From Curvularia clavata (lineage: Eukaryota), in assembly GCA_023920165.1 (NCBI GenBank), contig CP089275.1:1736001-1800000 (forward strand): a stretch of 64,000 nt of DNA. The letters are read 5' to 3'. Of this stretch, positions 47,463-56,012 are shown piece after piece. The position numbers and the translations under genes were made by a program. The notes under the pieces are model-generated. The model did no database searches, had not been told where the DNA came from, and saw nothing but the letters and a program-made list of their open reading frames with translations. The stretch's first letter is position 1. The number at the start of each line of letters is the position of its first letter.

Positions 47463-48394
47463 GATGTGACATTGAATGGGGTGCACGCCGGGACACACAA
47501 GCGGACGGTTGCAAAGGGCAGCCGTGTCTAGGACTGAGACATGTGTGTGGTATGAATGTCGGAGGAGATTCCTGGCCACTCAGGGCGTAGTGGGGCAGCC
47601 GAGATGCAGAGCCAGGGTGTCAGCGGGAGCCGGGCCAGTGGGGTATTTGCTGTGAGTGCACACGTTCGCAGCAAAGTGTCGTCGTCGACGGCGGGCGGGG
47701 ACCAATGGCAAAGGTGTTGAAGTCGTGTATATGCAGACAACCGTCTCCAAACCACTTGTCGTCTCACGATGATGCCGCTACCCAACGGGTGACGCGCCAT
47801 GGCCGATCTGCCGCACTAGGCCGAATCGAGCCGGCAGGTCGACCGCGGGGGTGATTACACACACACCAACCATAACCCACCCGCCACAGACGGGCGGCTG
47901 GCGTTGGTGATCACGGAGACGACGGCCGACAGGCACGGCTCCCGCCGGAATAAAGAAAGCTGTTGTCGCGGGTGTCCCTGTCGTGCGAGCAGCGCTGGGC
48001 GCACAGCGGGTGCATTTGGCAGGGCTGATGTTGATTATGACGTCCTCTACTGGCGTGGTAGCGAACCAGCGAACAGGGCAAGGCGCAAGGCTGCTGTTGC
48101 GGACCGCGCCCATGGGCTGTGGCTGAAAGGCCATCAGTAAGCACTCCACCTGCGCGTGGAATGCTCTCTAATACCGGCGTCCGTCGACGACGACAGCACC
48201 ATCGCCCCCCTCCGCCTCGCACCCCCCGACCCTCGTCCGCAATTGCGCCCTCGCCATGGCAGTCGCGCCCGCTGTGACTGTGTGATCGAGCCACCAGCCG
48301 CCGTCCCATAGCTCCCGCTCCCTCGACAGCCGTCCCTCCATCCCACCAAGAGCATGCCTTAGACGCCCGGGGCGCATCCCATCACACACACAAC

Positions 48395-51300
48395 ATGGCG
48401 CCCGACGGCGACTCTGGGCGGGCAGCGCGCTTTGCCCATATTCTTGCGCGGCTGCAGGAGCTCCCCAACTATGTCTGGGATTCGGAGATTGAACCCTTCC
48501 ACTCGGTGAGTGCCGACTATTAGCATGCCAACCATACCGCAACCCAGTGCGCTAATCACGTGCAGTCCTACGACAACTGGCACTTTTTTGGATACGAAAG
48601 GACCGCCCTTCGCCATGAGCGACCCCTCTCGAGGGGCAGGAGCGACGTCACCTCGTCCGCATCACACTCGCCCAGTTCCACCCGCCCGGCCTACCATCGC
48701 AGCCATCGCAGCTCGGGCTCCGAAGCCAGCGCTTCGACAGTCCTCACACACCACACCCAAACCACTGCAAAAACCCTCGCTCCCGATGGCCGTCCCGTCG
48801 TGTGCCGCGTGTCGCAGCATACTCTGCGACTGGAGCGCGAGTTCCATCTCTCCAAGCTCGTTGTAAAAGAGTCGGATCCCGAGTGCAGGCACTTTGTCCG
48901 TCCAATAGAATTTGCTCGCCTGCCTGCAAAGCAGGGAGAGGACCCGCTGGTTGCCAGCATCTTCGAAGCACCCGGCCCCAACTTCCTCAAGGAACTGGTC
49001 AATTTTGGCCCAAACTGGTACAATTTCCACAGAAATGGCAGCAGCAATACCGTCCACTCGAATGAATTGCTGTCCAATCAGGGCGTGCCCCTCCTCACCT
49101 TCCTCGACTTTGCCGTCGGATCCGTAGAGTGTCTGGAAATATTGCACCATGGTCACGAGATTGTCCATGGCGAAATTCGTGGCGATGCTTTTCACTTTGC
49201 CGAGTCAGGCGCTGTCAAGATGATTGTGAGTAGTTTCTTGTCCCATGCCCTGGAAATAAGCTTGCTGATCTTCCAAAGAACTTTGGCAGTGGCGCACGCT
49301 CATTTGAGAATGGCCTCACCAGTGCCGGCTGGAGTGTTTTATCCAAGGAAGCTGGCGTCGAATTAAAGCTAGCCTTCATCTCTCCCGAGCAGACGGGCCG
49401 CATGCCTGCTGAGCCGGATACACGAACTGACATATACAGCCTTGGTATACTCTTCTACACAATGCTCTGCGGCCATACTCCCTTTGACGGAAACACCGCT
49501 CTCGATGTCATGCAAAATGTCATCAGTAAGCGGATACCCCCGGTCTCTTCGAGACGTCTGGACATCCCCGAGGCTCTTTCCGAGGTCATTCAGCGAATGA
49601 CACAGCGCAATATCGAAGATCGATACCACTCCACTTCAGGACTCAAGTACGATCTTGCCCGTATACGCGAGTTGCTTTGCGAAGGCGACGTAGAAGGGTT
49701 GAAAGCATTCCAGGTTGGCTCAAAGGATATCAGCTGCTTCTTCAATCTCCCCCTCAAAATGATTGGGCGCGAAAAGGAGCGCAAGACAATAGTCGACGTA
49801 ATCGAGCGAGTGGCGAGATACCGCCGCAATGGTGTCAAAAACTTGCAGAGCATGAGTTCAGGCTCCTCCTATTCAGATCAGCGACTGGACCTACAGCTCG
49901 ATGACCTCGTTTCAGAAAGCACCAGCTCGAGGGGTTCCGAAAGTAGATTGAACAGCATCTCGGTAGATGGGCCTGTCTTCATGGAGTCGGCTCGATCCAT
50001 ACAACAAGGCTCTCAAGACAGTGTCGCGCAATCAGAGACTTCTACAGCTGACGGAAGCATGGAAAATCGACCGCATTTACAGCTTTCCCATAGAGGAAGA
50101 TCCAACAACAGCACTGAAGGCTCATTATACCCTTCTCGCTCACATCAGTCCAACGAGGGCCTACGGACCTTGGCAAGTACACGGAGACTGAGGCGGAAGG
50201 CTCGCTGCGAGGTAAGAACATCTGATGTCGTGTATCCTCTGTGCCTAACGCTAACCTGGAGCAGGTATGTCATTTCTATGGACTTGCAACAAGGGCTGAA
50301 AATACAGCTCGCTTTCCGAGTAATGTATACTGACCAACTATGTAGGTGATAGCAATTGGTGGAGCCACTGGACTGGGCAAGTCCCGTTTAGTGCAGAGCA
50401 TACAGAGTACTGCACGAAGTACAGGTTATTTCGCAATGGCTAAATTCGACCCCGATAAGAAAGCGCCTTTCGATCCCATCCTCAGGCTCATGTCTTCCTT
50501 CTTTAGGCAAATCTTCTCCGAGGCGGATGTCATGACTGATTTCCATCAGCGATTACGTCACTATCTTCGGAATAGCGGCGTTTGGATGGTACTGCGAAGT
50601 TATCTTGACCTGCCGGAATGGCTCTTGAACACGAACAATGCACCCAAAACACCCCAGCAAAAAGACCTAGATTTTATCAAGGATCGCCGTGCATCTTCTC
50701 CTGCTGTTCATTGCGGGACTGCTGGGCACACCGCCGAGGCCTGGCTAAGAAGTGGAGGGGCCTCGAAATCGTCCCGATTCATGAATGTCTTCATAGATGT
50801 CTTGCGGCTCCTTGCGATGCACAAGCTCTGTACTTGGTGCCTGGAAGATGTGCAAAACGCCGATCCAGAAAGTGCAGAGCTCATACATCACATTGTCCAA
50901 GCCAAGATACCCCTCGTCTTGATGTTCACTTACACACACGAGGAGACATTGCCTCGGGAGCTCAGTTCCCTGCTCCGGAATGCCACCAAGGTTCAACTGC
51001 TGCCATTCACTGAAGCTCAAACTGCCGAGTACGTGGCCGAAACTCTTCATCGAGATTACCACTATATCCTTCCATTGGTGGCGGTCATCCAGGAAAAGTC
51101 TCGAGGCAATCTTTTTTACATACGAGAAATTCTTGACACATGCTATAGAAAACGATGTGTCTTCTATGAATGGCGAGAGAACAATTGGGTTTTTGACATA
51201 GACAGGGTCTTCGAAGTGTTTGAAACTCCCGAGTATGGGTCTGCTGTCACGAATGATTTCATTGCTCGACGCCTAACCGATCTGCCGGGTGGGAGTAGAA

Positions 51301-54300
51301 AACTCCTGGCGTGGGCTTCTCTCTTGGGCGGTACCTTTTCGTTCGAGCTTCTGAAGAGACTTTTGAGACCGACATACGACCAACCTCCCGGAGCTAGACT
51401 GCCACTTTTTCAAAAGGATGAATGTGCTGTCACAGCCCTTAATGAAGCGCTGAAGGCGTACGTGCTGATGCCTGCCGAGCACGACGCTCGGTTCAGGTTC
51501 AGTCACGATAGATATTTGACAGCAGCTGCCAGTTCGCTGGACAAGGAGTGGGACACTCAGCTGATGCACTTTACTATTGCCAAAATGATCATCTCAGGAA
51601 AGGAGTATCTGGATGACCCAGAGCTGAGTTCGAAAGCGTTATACATGCAGAGTCGCCACATCTGTCTAGCGGCAGAGTTGATCAAATCCAAAGTACCGGT
51701 ACGAGCCCCGTTTCGCGACATGCTTTACCAAGCAGGAGAGACGGCATGCGAGTCCGGGGCGAGATCAACCGGTATCTACTACTTCGCACACAGTCTCAAG
51801 CTATTACAAGACGATCCGTGGGACGAAAGCAAACCAGATGTGTCGTATCAGGAGACTTTGCAGCTTTTTGTACGCTCAGCCGAATGCTACTGGCATCAGG
51901 GCATGTATGAGGAAGCCCTTAGTCTGATTGAGACTACGTTCAAGCACGCAAAGGACCCATGCGACAAAGCTAGCTCATACATTCTACAGTCCCGCGTTTT
52001 CGCCATTTGTGGCGATAGTTCTGGGTATGTAACTTTCCTATGCCCCTCCCCCTATTCGTGTAGTCACTGCACCATTCTTGAACAACATGCTAACGTTGGC
52101 ACACATGCAGAGCTCTCGAGTCCCTGCGAAACTGCTTGTCCTTGCTTGGGTATCCTATTCCGCCCACAACGTGGGAAGAATGTGATGCACAGTTTCAAGA
52201 GATTTATAGCATGCTTCAAAAGGCTGACAAGAACGAGTTACTCATGGCACGTCCGCCCACCAATGATCGTATCTTAATGACCATTGGCCCTGTGTTCGTG
52301 GAGCTTCTTAGCGCGGCGTTCTGGTCAAACAGCTTGCTCTTCTACCAAGCTACACTAATGCTGATAAAGGTGCATCTCAAACACGGCACACTGTCGCAAG
52401 TTGCGCTCGCGTATGTGCACCTGGGTAGCATTGCTGGTGGGCGGTTCAACATGACTCAGTTCGCTGTCGACATGGGTGGCATGGCAAAGCGCGTCTTTCA
52501 AATGTTCCCCGAAGATTACTACACTCTGGGCAGAGCCCAGACGCTACAACCTTTGTTCCTAGGTCACTTGGAAGAGCCCGTGTGCGATCTAATACCCTAT
52601 CTAGAAGAGGCTTTACAGGCTTCTCTTACTGCAGGCGATCGCATCCTCACGCTTCTGAATGTTGGTGTTCAGGCTCATTTCAGGATGATAGCATCCCATG
52701 ATGTTGCTGAGCTAGAAGCCTGGATCGAGGAGACACCTCTGGACATGAAGAACTGGCCAAAGGATTTGAGAGGAGGTGTCTTCTTAATAGCCAGCCGCCA
52801 ATATGCGAGAGCTCTCCAAGGGAAAACGGATACAAGCAACCCAGCATCGATTTTCTCCGATCACGAACACAATGAGGCACAGTATATTGAATTCCTTGAG
52901 AAGACAGCGAGCAACCCGAAGCGGCCAAAATCGATATATTTTGCTACCAAACTTCCATTGTTGGTACTGTTCGGTTTCAACTCGGAAGCAGTCGCTCTTG
53001 GTGAGCAATTACTTCCTATGCTAAGCAGCCTCTGGTGTGAACGTTCAAACTACTCTGTCAGATACTATCTGTCGTTAGCGTACATGGCAGTCCTTAGAGA
53101 GGATCCTCAGGACCCTCGAAAAGACGAAATGCTCCGCCATGTTCAAGAAACACTCAAGCTACTGGACGCGTGTTGTACAATCACTGACGTCAATTATCGA
53201 GGCTGGAAGCACATCCTTACTGCCTTGCTAGCAGACATCAGTGCTGACCATCAGTCTGCCCTGCAAAACTATGAAGCCGCTATGGACCATTGCCAGTGCC
53301 ATAACTTCACTCTCGACGAGGCATTTGCTCTTGAGCTGTACGCTGAATGGCTTGTGCGGAAACAGGCTCACAGAGCAGCTCGGCATACGCTGAAGGACTG
53401 CATCTCAACATATAGACGAATTTCTGCATTCGGAAAAGCGAACCACTTCGCAAGCAAACATGAGTCCATTCTTCGTCGCGGTATCTCGATGGCCGTTCAG
53501 GATGCCGCTGTCCAGACTTTAATCACTGACACAAACAACACTGCCTTCAGGCTCGAGCAAAACGACCTGGGAACCGAAACAGCCGTCGACCGAACGCAGA
53601 ATTGGATAGTTCCCGAGGGCACTCGTCGTCAAGAGTCCGCCCAAGGTCTGCAGAATGGCCTGTCAGCTGTAGGCCTCGACATGTTAGATCTCTCCTCTAT
53701 CCTCGAGTCAAGCCAAGTCCTTTCGAGCGAGTTGGTGGTAGACAAGCTCATGGCAAAAATGAGCTCCATTCTCCTAGAATCTACCGGAGGCACACTTTGT
53801 GGTATTGTCGTCGAAGACCCGCAGATCGAGTGGTCCATTGCATGCGTAGCAACCAATGAGCCTGACAACGACAGTGGGTTCAACTCTGGCGTCACATCGT
53901 TTCCTGCAAGCCAGCCTCTGGATACTGTAGACGATGTTGTAGCTCGACAGGTGACACTTTATACCTTGCGCTTCCGAGAAACCGTCTTTGTTCAGAACCT
54001 ACTAGAAGATGACCGGTTTTCCAACGTCTCGGACTCATACCTGCGACGCAACCCAGAAGGCAAAGCGGTCATCTGTATCCCTATCGTACACAGCGATCAT
54101 CTCCTGGGGTCAATCTACGTCGAAGGCCCGCCCAACTCGTTTACCGAGAGAAATACACAAGTTCTTCGACTACTGGTTAATCAGATATCCATATCTTTGG
54201 CCAATGCGCTACTGTTCAAAGAAGTGGAAAGGGTCTCTGCGAGCAACGAAGCAATGCTCGAGATGCAGAAACGGGCCTTGGCACAGGCTCGAGCTGCAGA

Positions 54301-56012
54301 GATCAAAGCAAAAGAAGCCGAGGCCAATGCCATCCGTAACATGCGGTTGAAGGAAGAAGCAGCCAAGGCCAAGAGTCTCTTCTTGGCCAACGTTTCGCAT
54401 GAACTGCGAACACCGTTGAACGGAGTCATTGGAATGTCGGAGCTGCTGAAAGCATCGCCTCTTAATGCAGAGCAATCAGGATACGCGGACTCGATTCGCG
54501 TCTGCGCTGATACATTGCTGTCGATTATCAATGACCTGCTTGACTATTCCAAACTTGAGGCTGGCAAGATGAACGTCATGGAGATGCCCATTTCGCTCAA
54601 CGAAACCATTGCCGAAGTTGTTCGTGCGCTTGCATACACAAATGCTGAGCGAGGACTCAAGACCATTGAACAGCTGGAGCTAGATCCGGAAATGCTAGTC
54701 ATGGGCGATCCTGTCCGACTTCACCAGATTTTAATGAACTTGTTATCCAACAGCTACAAGTTTACGCCGAGAGGATCGGTCACCGTTCGCGCAGTTGTGG
54801 ATCAAGAGACAAGCGAATGGGCAGATGTCACGTGCAGCGTCATCGACACTGGTATTGGTATTCCGGACGAGCAGAAGCAAAAGTTGTTCCTCCCCTTTTC
54901 ACAAATCGAGTCCAGCTCTGCTAGAAGCTATGGAGGCACGGGCCTTGGCCTCAGCATCTGCAAAGCTCTCATCGAAAACGTTATGCATGGGACAGTGCGC
55001 CTCGACAGTCAGCCAGGCAAGGGCACAACAGTTACCTTCTCGCTTCGCTTCAAGAAGGTACCAAAGGCACAGGCAGGAAATCAGCAGCAGAGGAGCAGAG
55101 AACCCGATCCTATGGCCAGATTCTCAAGCCAGGAAAACAATGGCCACGAGCACTCGTCTGGTGCATGCATTGACCTTTCTACCGTGCCCAGACGAGACCT
55201 ACGGGTTTGCATTGCAGAGGACAATCTGATCAACCAACGCATCGCCATTAGCTTTGTACAAAGGCTTGGTTTCAAGTGTGATGCTTATCTCGACGGCTTT
55301 AAGACAATTGATGCCCTGGAACGTGCATCTGAGAACGGCCGGCCTTTCCACCTTGTCCTTATGGATGTGCAAATGCCACATTGTGATGGTTATGAAGGTA
55401 AGACGATGCATTTCTACCGTCGATTTGGCTTGCAGATGCTGACCCTATGCAGCTACCAGACTGATCCGGAAGCATCCTAACCCTGAGATAAGAAATGTTC
55501 TCATCATTGCCATGACAGCTTCGGCGATACAAGGCGACCGTGAGAAGTGTATGTATATTTTCTTGATGCGAAATGACCTAGATGGATTGACTAACTCCAA
55601 CAAAGGCATTGAAAGTGGTATGAACAATTACCTGGCAAAGCCCGTGCGCGCACAGACACTCCAAGCCCTGCTCGAGTCGTACCTGAACAAGAACAACGAG
55701 ACTCAGGAGATTCCTAATCTGGCACAAGAGGCGAAGAAGATGGTCAAAGAAGCACTAAAGGAAGCCCAGGCACTGCCCAATGTCACTGGGGGAAATGAAA
55801 ACATGAAGAAGGAAGTGGGTATTGAGAATGTCGCGGCAGGGGTAAAGAAGGATTCAAATGGCGAAAGCACAGGGTTAAAGGGTAAGAAGGAATCAGATGC
55901 TGAGAGCAAAGCGGCGGATGCAAAAGTAGACCGCCCATCCGGGGTCCGCATGTCCACGACACAGCACATATTACCAAACGGGAAGACGGAGCCTGTGCCG
56001 CCTTCAGGATAA
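48395..56012 (+). CDS. Group X hybrid histidine kinase (Ser/Thr kinase-like, AAA ATPase, GAF, HisKA, HATPase, REC; Chk1/Mak2/Phk-like); exons 48395-48505, 48566-49225, 49279-50211, 50346-52024, 52111-55397, 55453-55548, 55606-56012
   Basis: Kinase-like domain (HGEIRGDAF, NFGSG, ISPEQTGR, DIYSLG), P-loop GATGLGKS, GAF (VICIPI..LLGSIYVE), H-box LANVSHELRTPLNG, N-box NLLSNSYKFT, DTGIG, GGTGLGLSI, and receiver LVLMDVQMP..MTASA..LAKP. All splice junctions preserve the frame. Confidence 0.94.

Follow-up and report, generated by a model that had tools for sequence, protein, structure and literature searches.

Two abutting introns with a zero-nucleotide exon in a group X histidine kinase gene of Curvularia clavata: a candidate for recursive splicing

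Introduction

Are the 134 nt between the third and fourth exons of a histidine kinase gene of Curvularia clavata one intron or two and, if they are two, how are they removed and how did they come to touch? The gene lies in a 64,000-nt stretch of the genome (contig CP089275.1, positions 1,736,001–1,800,000; hereafter, the window). A first-pass annotation of its sequence described two complete introns lying back to back at this position and proposed that their stepwise splicing could act as a regulated switch between the full sensor and either a target of nonsense-mediated decay (NMD) or a kinase-only product. Here we examine this intervening sequence, its spliced product in close relatives and its counterparts in orthologous genes, and weigh the ways in which it might be removed.

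The host gene

The kinase gene (Table 1) has seven exons. Introns 2 and 3 are confirmed by spliced contigs and the remaining ones are predicted. Its product is 88.7–89.2% identical to Bipolaris proteins and, according to Pfam, contains a partial Pkinase domain (serine/threonine kinase-related) and AAA_16 (with the P-loop), GAF, HisKA, HATPase_c and Response_reg domains; the match to the last of these is partial and falls under the Pfam cut-off because the exon ends. The hallmark of group X is given in PMC6324907 as an N-terminal serine/threonine kinase-related domain and a GAF domain preceding the HisKA, HATPase and receiver domains. The kinase in the window has this domain arrangement and its homologues are named HHK1p or Chk1, of which HHK1p is listed as group X; it belongs to group X on both counts.

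The 5' leader of the gene carries two upstream ORFs on the forward strand that are kept across relatives. The first (48256–48285; nine codons, MAVAP....) also has nine codons in the orthologous loci L001, L012 and L003 and six in L004 and L011. The second (48354–48362), ∼ 40 nt ahead of the start, has two codons and encodes MP or MS; in L003 it has eight codons. Conserved translational control of HHK1 by these upstream ORFs would be a better candidate for regulation than the intron arrangement described below. Two of the kinase introns on the forward strand, 49226–49278 and 55549–55605, end in an acceptor of the rarer AAG type, the first of them confirmed in spliced contigs.

Table 1. Features of the kinase gene and of its 134-nt intervening sequence (positions are those of the window).
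Feature	Position	Strand	Remarks
Group X (HHK1-type) hybrid histidine kinase gene	48395..56012	+	7 exons, 2390 aa
Exons of the kinase gene	48395-48505, 48566-49225, 49279-50211, 50346-52024, 52111-55397, 55453-55548, 55606-56012	+	No internal stops
Intervening sequence, phase 0, 134 nt	50212..50345	+	Net splice 50211^50346; joint skips 134 nt, GT..AG, in runs X1, X6 and X24
Unit A, 53 nt	50212..50264	+	Donor GTAAGA, acceptor CAG; putative ancestral intron of the position
Branch-point motifs of unit A, two CTAAC	50245-50249, 50251-50255	+	Predicted branch A at 50248 or 50254
Seam CAG/GTATGT	50262..50270	+	Unit A acceptor abuts unit B donor: zero-nucleotide exon
Unit B, 81 nt	50265..50345	+	Donor GTATGT, CTGAC at 50330-50334, acceptor TAG; putative later addition
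P-loop GATGLGKS, AAA_16 domain	50361..50384	+	5 codons past the 134-nt junction; absent from every partly spliced form

The 134-nt intervening sequence

The intervening sequence reads as two complete introns, units A and B (53 and 81 nt), with no exon between them, and the motifs and coordinates given for them in the first-pass annotation stand. This reading is supported by the strength of the motifs, by shuffles, by the homology of unit A and by a seam-compatible peptide of a relative, P0181, all considered below. Within the sequence, an acceptor with its own branch point is directly followed by a donor, and it is this arrangement that makes a zero-nucleotide exon. AG/GT is present at all three boundaries, so that either unit could be removed first while the other stays whole, a property that had been correctly read from the sequence.

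Removal of both units joins RCE to VIAIGGATGLGKS and gives the protein of 2390 aa without internal stops. Removal of unit A alone had been said to leave 81 nt with an in-frame TGA just upstream of the P-loop, and removal of unit B alone to cause a frameshift; the sequence agrees with both statements. The predicted products are 590 aa with unit B kept (the TGA lies at 50331–50333), 586 aa with unit A kept and 613 aa with both kept, all of them ending ahead of the P-loop, and both half-spliced forms would stop ∼ 5.5 kb short of the normal stop. The description of the 134 nt as the longest intron of the window holds within the kinase gene, to which the comparison was confined and whose other five introns measure 53–86 nt.

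The pair of abutting introns at 50265 is the sole one on either strand of the window, with a strict and a relaxed pattern alike. Under the strict pattern, order-3 Markov copies of the window (60 for each pattern) contained 0.017 pairs per window and shuffling the interior of the 134-nt intron produced a seam in 93 of 200,000 trials; under the relaxed pattern, the figures were 0.72 pairs and 868 of 200,000 trials. A seam is thus unlikely to appear by chance in one given intron, and a scan of many fungal windows would meet some chance seams of the relaxed grade. At the nine positions of the donor consensus, the donor of unit B scores 8/9 before and 7/9 after removal of unit A, compared to 5–7 for the other donors of the gene. 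RNA structure at the locus did not stand out (z = 0.37), and there was no Rfam match to a nested non-coding RNA in 49900–50700.

Spliced transcripts

Transcript data consisted of assembled contigs from four of the 24 listed runs (X1, X6, X14 and X24), the junction being covered in all of these except X14. In each of the three covering runs, which come from three studies, a single contig of 7.6 kb lacks both intron 2 (53 nt) and the entire 134 nt, with zero letters in between. These contigs differ from the window at 27, 27 and 33 letters, respectively, in ∼ 1,610 (98% alike); they represent, as spliced sequence only, close relatives and not the strain of the window. In these 98%-identical relatives, zero bases of the internal site are kept in the mRNA. 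None of the three covering runs contained a form with only unit A or only unit B removed, or with the intron retained, in their assembled contigs, which drop rare forms; half-spliced forms were not abundant enough to assemble in those samples. The contigs fix the end product of splicing and not its route.

Read-through peptides of relatives

Gene calls of the prokaryotic style do not stop at the end of exon 3 but read on into the intron, which they therefore display as peptide. The most informative of these peptides belongs to P0181, which is 91.5% identical to the window over exon 3 and whose read-through ends in ...CANTNSWLGMSTL and a stop; the other two frames of the window over the intron read ...PNANLEQ and ...GMSFLW. 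The tail of P0181 aligns to the window intron (z ∼ 4; matched by 0/150 and 0/100 shuffles) and is compatible with two CTAAC motifs (nt 32 and 38) and with YAG/GTATGT at nt 52 (nt 53 in the window). A loose seam pattern fits 256 of 3,000 random peptides, and therefore only a strict test that includes the branch point was used; it was passed by none of 4,000 random window peptides (by 5/4,000 if GTRWGT is allowed). Sequence past the P0181 seam is not exon 4. Since P0181 allows for both branch points and for YAG/GTATGT, the seam is taken to be old and inherited, the evidence being not DNA but one peptide, for whose Leu and Gly the choice of codon could abolish the AG and the GT. The outer donor of P0181, as judged from the first two read-through residues, would read GTNGAY and lack the usual G at +5. 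The donor may be weak, or the contig may contain an error of one base, in which case its unit A would be 53 nt long, as in the window.

Best-case matches between P0181 and the window amount to 26/32 (z = 4.1) in the block from branch point to donor versus 16/25 (z = 1.2) in the interior of unit A, which suggests, without proving it, selection on the seam. Likeness is also retained over this distance in the interiors of ordinary introns (19/25 best-case matches and z = 3.2–4.0 for intron 2; z = 1.3 for intron 5), so that persistence of the seam does not prove selection.

Two tails of the Bipolaris type keep the second CTAAC (nt 38) and end ahead of the seam, and a third (P0221) ends earlier. 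Alternaria and Bipolaris read-through peptides have a branch-point-compatible motif at nt 38–45, as in unit A, and the alignment of Alternaria-type tails to the window intron was not above chance. Two further protein searches yielded no new informative read-through.

A tree of the exon-3 peptide (26 rows; 24 proteins had been selected, but P0185 and P0032 were left out, as their peptide ends were not found) places the window outside the Bipolaris clade (95/98) and adjoining that clade (87/88), with P0181 as the sister of the window and Bipolaris (87/90). The branching order (P0181,(window,Bipolaris)) has a support of only 87/88–90.

Orthologous loci and the origin of unit B

Twelve orthologous loci, obtained from one metagenome scan, are more distant from the window than Bipolaris and the source of P0181. 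Three of them have a single intron at this position (92 nt in L003, 58 nt in L010 and L012) and six have none (L002, L004–L007 and L011); L001 looks like a spliced transcript of the L010/L012 type, and two loci are uninformative. The internal seam is absent from all three orthologous introns seen as DNA. On conservation of the internal site, the comparison has one compatible peptide (P0181) and its absence from 3/3 DNA introns; the Bipolaris peptides stop short of the seam.

Unit A resembles the single introns of L010 (13/1000 shuffles score as well) and L003 (7/1000), whereas unit B shows no likeness to either (690/1000 and 663/1000 shuffles, respectively, are as good). The ACGCTAA at the branch point is invariant in 4/4 rows, in part as the consensus itself. 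Since it is unit A, not unit B, that resembles the single intron of the three loci, unit A is probably the old intron and unit B an addition, gained flush against the acceptor of unit A.

Several sources of unit B were considered. A duplicate of unit A was rejected, as the two show no likeness (739/1000 shuffles as good). A mobile or repeated intron found no support, a search of the window and the 12 loci giving no copy of unit B. The first 79 nt of exon 4 (50346–50426, forward strand) run from GT to AG/GT and are about the size of unit B. Their tandem duplication would be only a lead, the likeness being not significant (81–104/1000 shuffles and 23–42 of the 528 GT..AG 79-mers of the window are as good).

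In 11 loci, near-duplicates included, 21 introns of the kinase family were delimited and two further gaps were not. Seven of the 21 measure 113–187 nt and none of these carries a seam. The position of the 134-nt sequence holds an intron in some Pleosporaceae and none in others, even among Alternaria-like loci. Further intron positions of the gene also vary between loci, which marks the kinase gene as one of high intron turnover.

Mode of removal and alternative interpretations

From the observed motifs, the net junction and the lack of a microexon we infer an order of gain and a use of the internal sites that amount to constitutive two-step (recursive) removal of two ordinary spliceosomal introns, as a by-product of intron gain; we assign this reading a probability of about 0.6. 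An ancestral intron of 50–60 nt (unit A) would have separated the codons of ...RCE from those of VIAIG.... At its 3' end, the acceptor and the start of the following exon would have formed an AG/GT, a ready insertion site at which unit B, a complete intron, would have been gained in the lineage of the window's fungus and a more distant Bipolaris relative. Under intron definition, the branch point and CAG that lie closest to the donor GTAAGA would be paired with it, and unit A would be removed; GAG of exon 3 would thereby be joined to GTATGT, a strong donor, and unit B would then be removed. The reverse order would give an identical mRNA. For filamentous ascomycetes, PMC6616335 takes the nearest splice sites to pair and gives an intron minimum of 42 nt, which both units exceed. 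Use of the unit A acceptor without the unit B donor would truncate the kinase (590 aa), so that the signals of unit A would be expected to decay or the allele to be lost; both sets of signals are intact, as two-step removal predicts. Stepwise removal is thus likely, with the net junction, seen in contigs, as the only junction observed.

The 134 nt might instead be cut out in one step as a single intron. In that case, CTAAC..CAG would be what remains of the 3' end of the ancestral intron, behind which 81 nt were added, and GTATGT would be a relic or a chance resemblance, seldom used. We consider this unlikely, although it has several points in its favour: the net junction alone was seen, the single introns of 113–187 nt in the same gene family mean that 134 nt is not too long, chance supplies relaxed seams at 0.72 per window, and the adjacent sites of a zero-length exon may obstruct one another. 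However, the supposedly leftover signals are perfect and are the closest ones to the donor and, if unused, they should decay or else cause truncation; moreover, the internal donor is the best-matching one in the kinase gene and P0181 is compatible with the seam. A regulated switch, as proposed in the first-pass annotation, would have the second cut withheld under some condition, the sensor being tuned through an NMD target or through a kinase-only protein of 590 aa. Both half-spliced forms do end just before the P-loop, and alternative splicing coupled to NMD is documented in Schizosaccharomyces pombe (bioRxiv 10.1101/226894). This proposal, nevertheless, found no isoform support: none of the three covering runs, from three studies, had a half-spliced contig (rare forms being dropped from contigs). 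Retention of the single ancestral intron already yields an early stop in relatives, so that unit B adds no new type of product; 6/12 loci lack any intron here, and most relatives, in which the gene is functional with one intron or with none at this position, do without the arrangement. In Fusarium graminearum, early-stop isoforms are reported not to be raised in a upf1 mutant (bioRxiv 2021.11.08.467853). A switch is, accordingly, quite improbable.

Still less probable, to the point of being very hard to maintain, is that GAG and GT are separated by a microexon of 3 nt (CAG, Gln) or that the interval is a stwintron, with one intron breaking up a splice signal of its partner. The GAGCAG right before the internal donor does offer a second AG at 50261, and stwintrons are well documented in filamentous ascomycetes. 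The transcript joint, however, skips exactly 134 nt with nothing in between, and the distance from CE to the Gly of the P-loop is five residues in 97 of the 99 homologues (out of 120; 21 were unreadable) whose junction could be read by pattern, the other two fitting mis-called GC donors. With no extra bases or residues at the junction, a microexon between two introns is disfavoured. As for a stwintron, the seam is AG/GT and not the shared-G AGT of [D1,2] and [A2,3] stwintrons (PMC5587772); cutting out either unit rebuilds no interrupted signal, and both units stand side by side with all signals intact in the DNA. With no signal interrupted and no nesting, this reading is disfavoured as well.

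Orthologues read CE/VIAIG at the junction. Five homologue junctions were flagged, three of them through overreach of the pattern and two (P0001 and P0019) with extra residues starting with Ala-Ser. The public models P0001 and P0121–P0127 (Bipolaris) and P0019 (Alternaria atra) have 1–5 extra residues or 1 missing residue just upstream of the P-loop. All eight named Bipolaris models (P0001, P0121–P0127) deviate in this way and another member of the same cluster reads CE/VIAIG; read-through peptides begin with Ala-Ser. The deviating models would fit a GC-AG intron that gene callers missed and mis-called at a nearby GT, and relatives seem to differ in having GT or GC as the donor of this intron.

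Comparison with known systems

Recursive AG/GT sites had been characterized in the first-pass annotation as described mainly in animals, which understates the record, as zero-nucleotide exons have already been shown in two fungi, S. pombe and Cryptococcus neoformans. Recursive splicing at a zero-nucleotide exon is reported for C. neoformans BOT1/CNAG_07884 (Burke et al., bioRxiv 10.1101/224170). Like the locus described here, BOT1 has an annotated intron that consists of two introns touching at an acceptor/donor pivot and a net junction like that of one intron. It is, however, a 375-nt sequence (210 + 165) of a basidiomycete, for which both junctions and the branches were seen, whereas the 53- and 81-nt units of the window belong to a filamentous ascomycete and are known from the net junction alone, one of them being traceable to a single ancestral intron. 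In S. pombe, zero-length exons are reported for SPNCRNA.445 and a second case (bioRxiv 10.1101/226894). There too, a 3' splice site touches a 5' splice site within one intron, and the site is conserved in related species. That intron is 336 nt long, lies in a snoRNA host and was demonstrated by spliceosome profiling; the window intron, in contrast, is short and lies in a coding region, with no Rfam match around it. The ratchet points of Drosophila and vertebrates likewise use an AG/GT at which a donor re-forms once the first cut is made, but they subdivide very long introns. A 134-nt sequence needs no subdivision, so length cannot explain two steps here. Stwintrons of Pezizomycotina and Lipomyces are, like the units considered here, short fungal sequences whose removal, by intron definition, takes two reactions (PMC6616335, PMC7138796, PMC5587772). 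In these, one intron is nested in the other or interrupts its signal and the order of removal is forced, whereas the units of the window lie side by side and could be removed in either order. Abutting introns are set apart as a type of their own in PMC6616335.

A literature search in which few subscription journals were covered found no demonstrated zero-nucleotide exon in a filamentous ascomycete. Fungi are not mentioned in the accessible portion of a 2026 review of non-canonical splicing (PMC13149111), nor does the term 'recursive' occur in the available text of the F. graminearum Iso-Seq preprint (bioRxiv 2021.11.08.467853); PMC4712674, in the part available, proposes a method only. The kinase locus is a genuine and well-formed candidate for a phenomenon already known, and its main added value is a traceable origin. 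What appears to be new here is the existence of three orthologous loci with one intron of 58–92 nt that resembles unit A and not unit B.

Implications

The seam leaves the protein unchanged and there is no sign of altered kinase biology. If the internal sites are used, this would be recursive splicing in an intron of 134 nt, where the usual reason for it, very long introns, fails. Comparison with the relatives offers an origin for such pairs, namely, intron gain at an intron-exon boundary, and the locus could serve as a small and inexpensive model both of the treatment of touching sites by the spliceosome and of the emergence of such pairs. As a caution, some of the longer fungal introns now taken as single would be pairs. 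A broader proposal, rather doubtful as a whole and offered only tentatively, is that fungal zero-nucleotide exons arise by intron gain exactly at the AG/GT formed by an existing acceptor and exon; that this locus keeps all the stages (no intron, a single GT or GC intron, two abutting introns) in one family; that two-step removal is obligatory here; and that the second cut may now dose the sensor. If intron gain and obligatory two-step removal were true, the kinase gene would become the first tested case in a filamentous ascomycete and would provide a handle on intron gain and precise half-loss.
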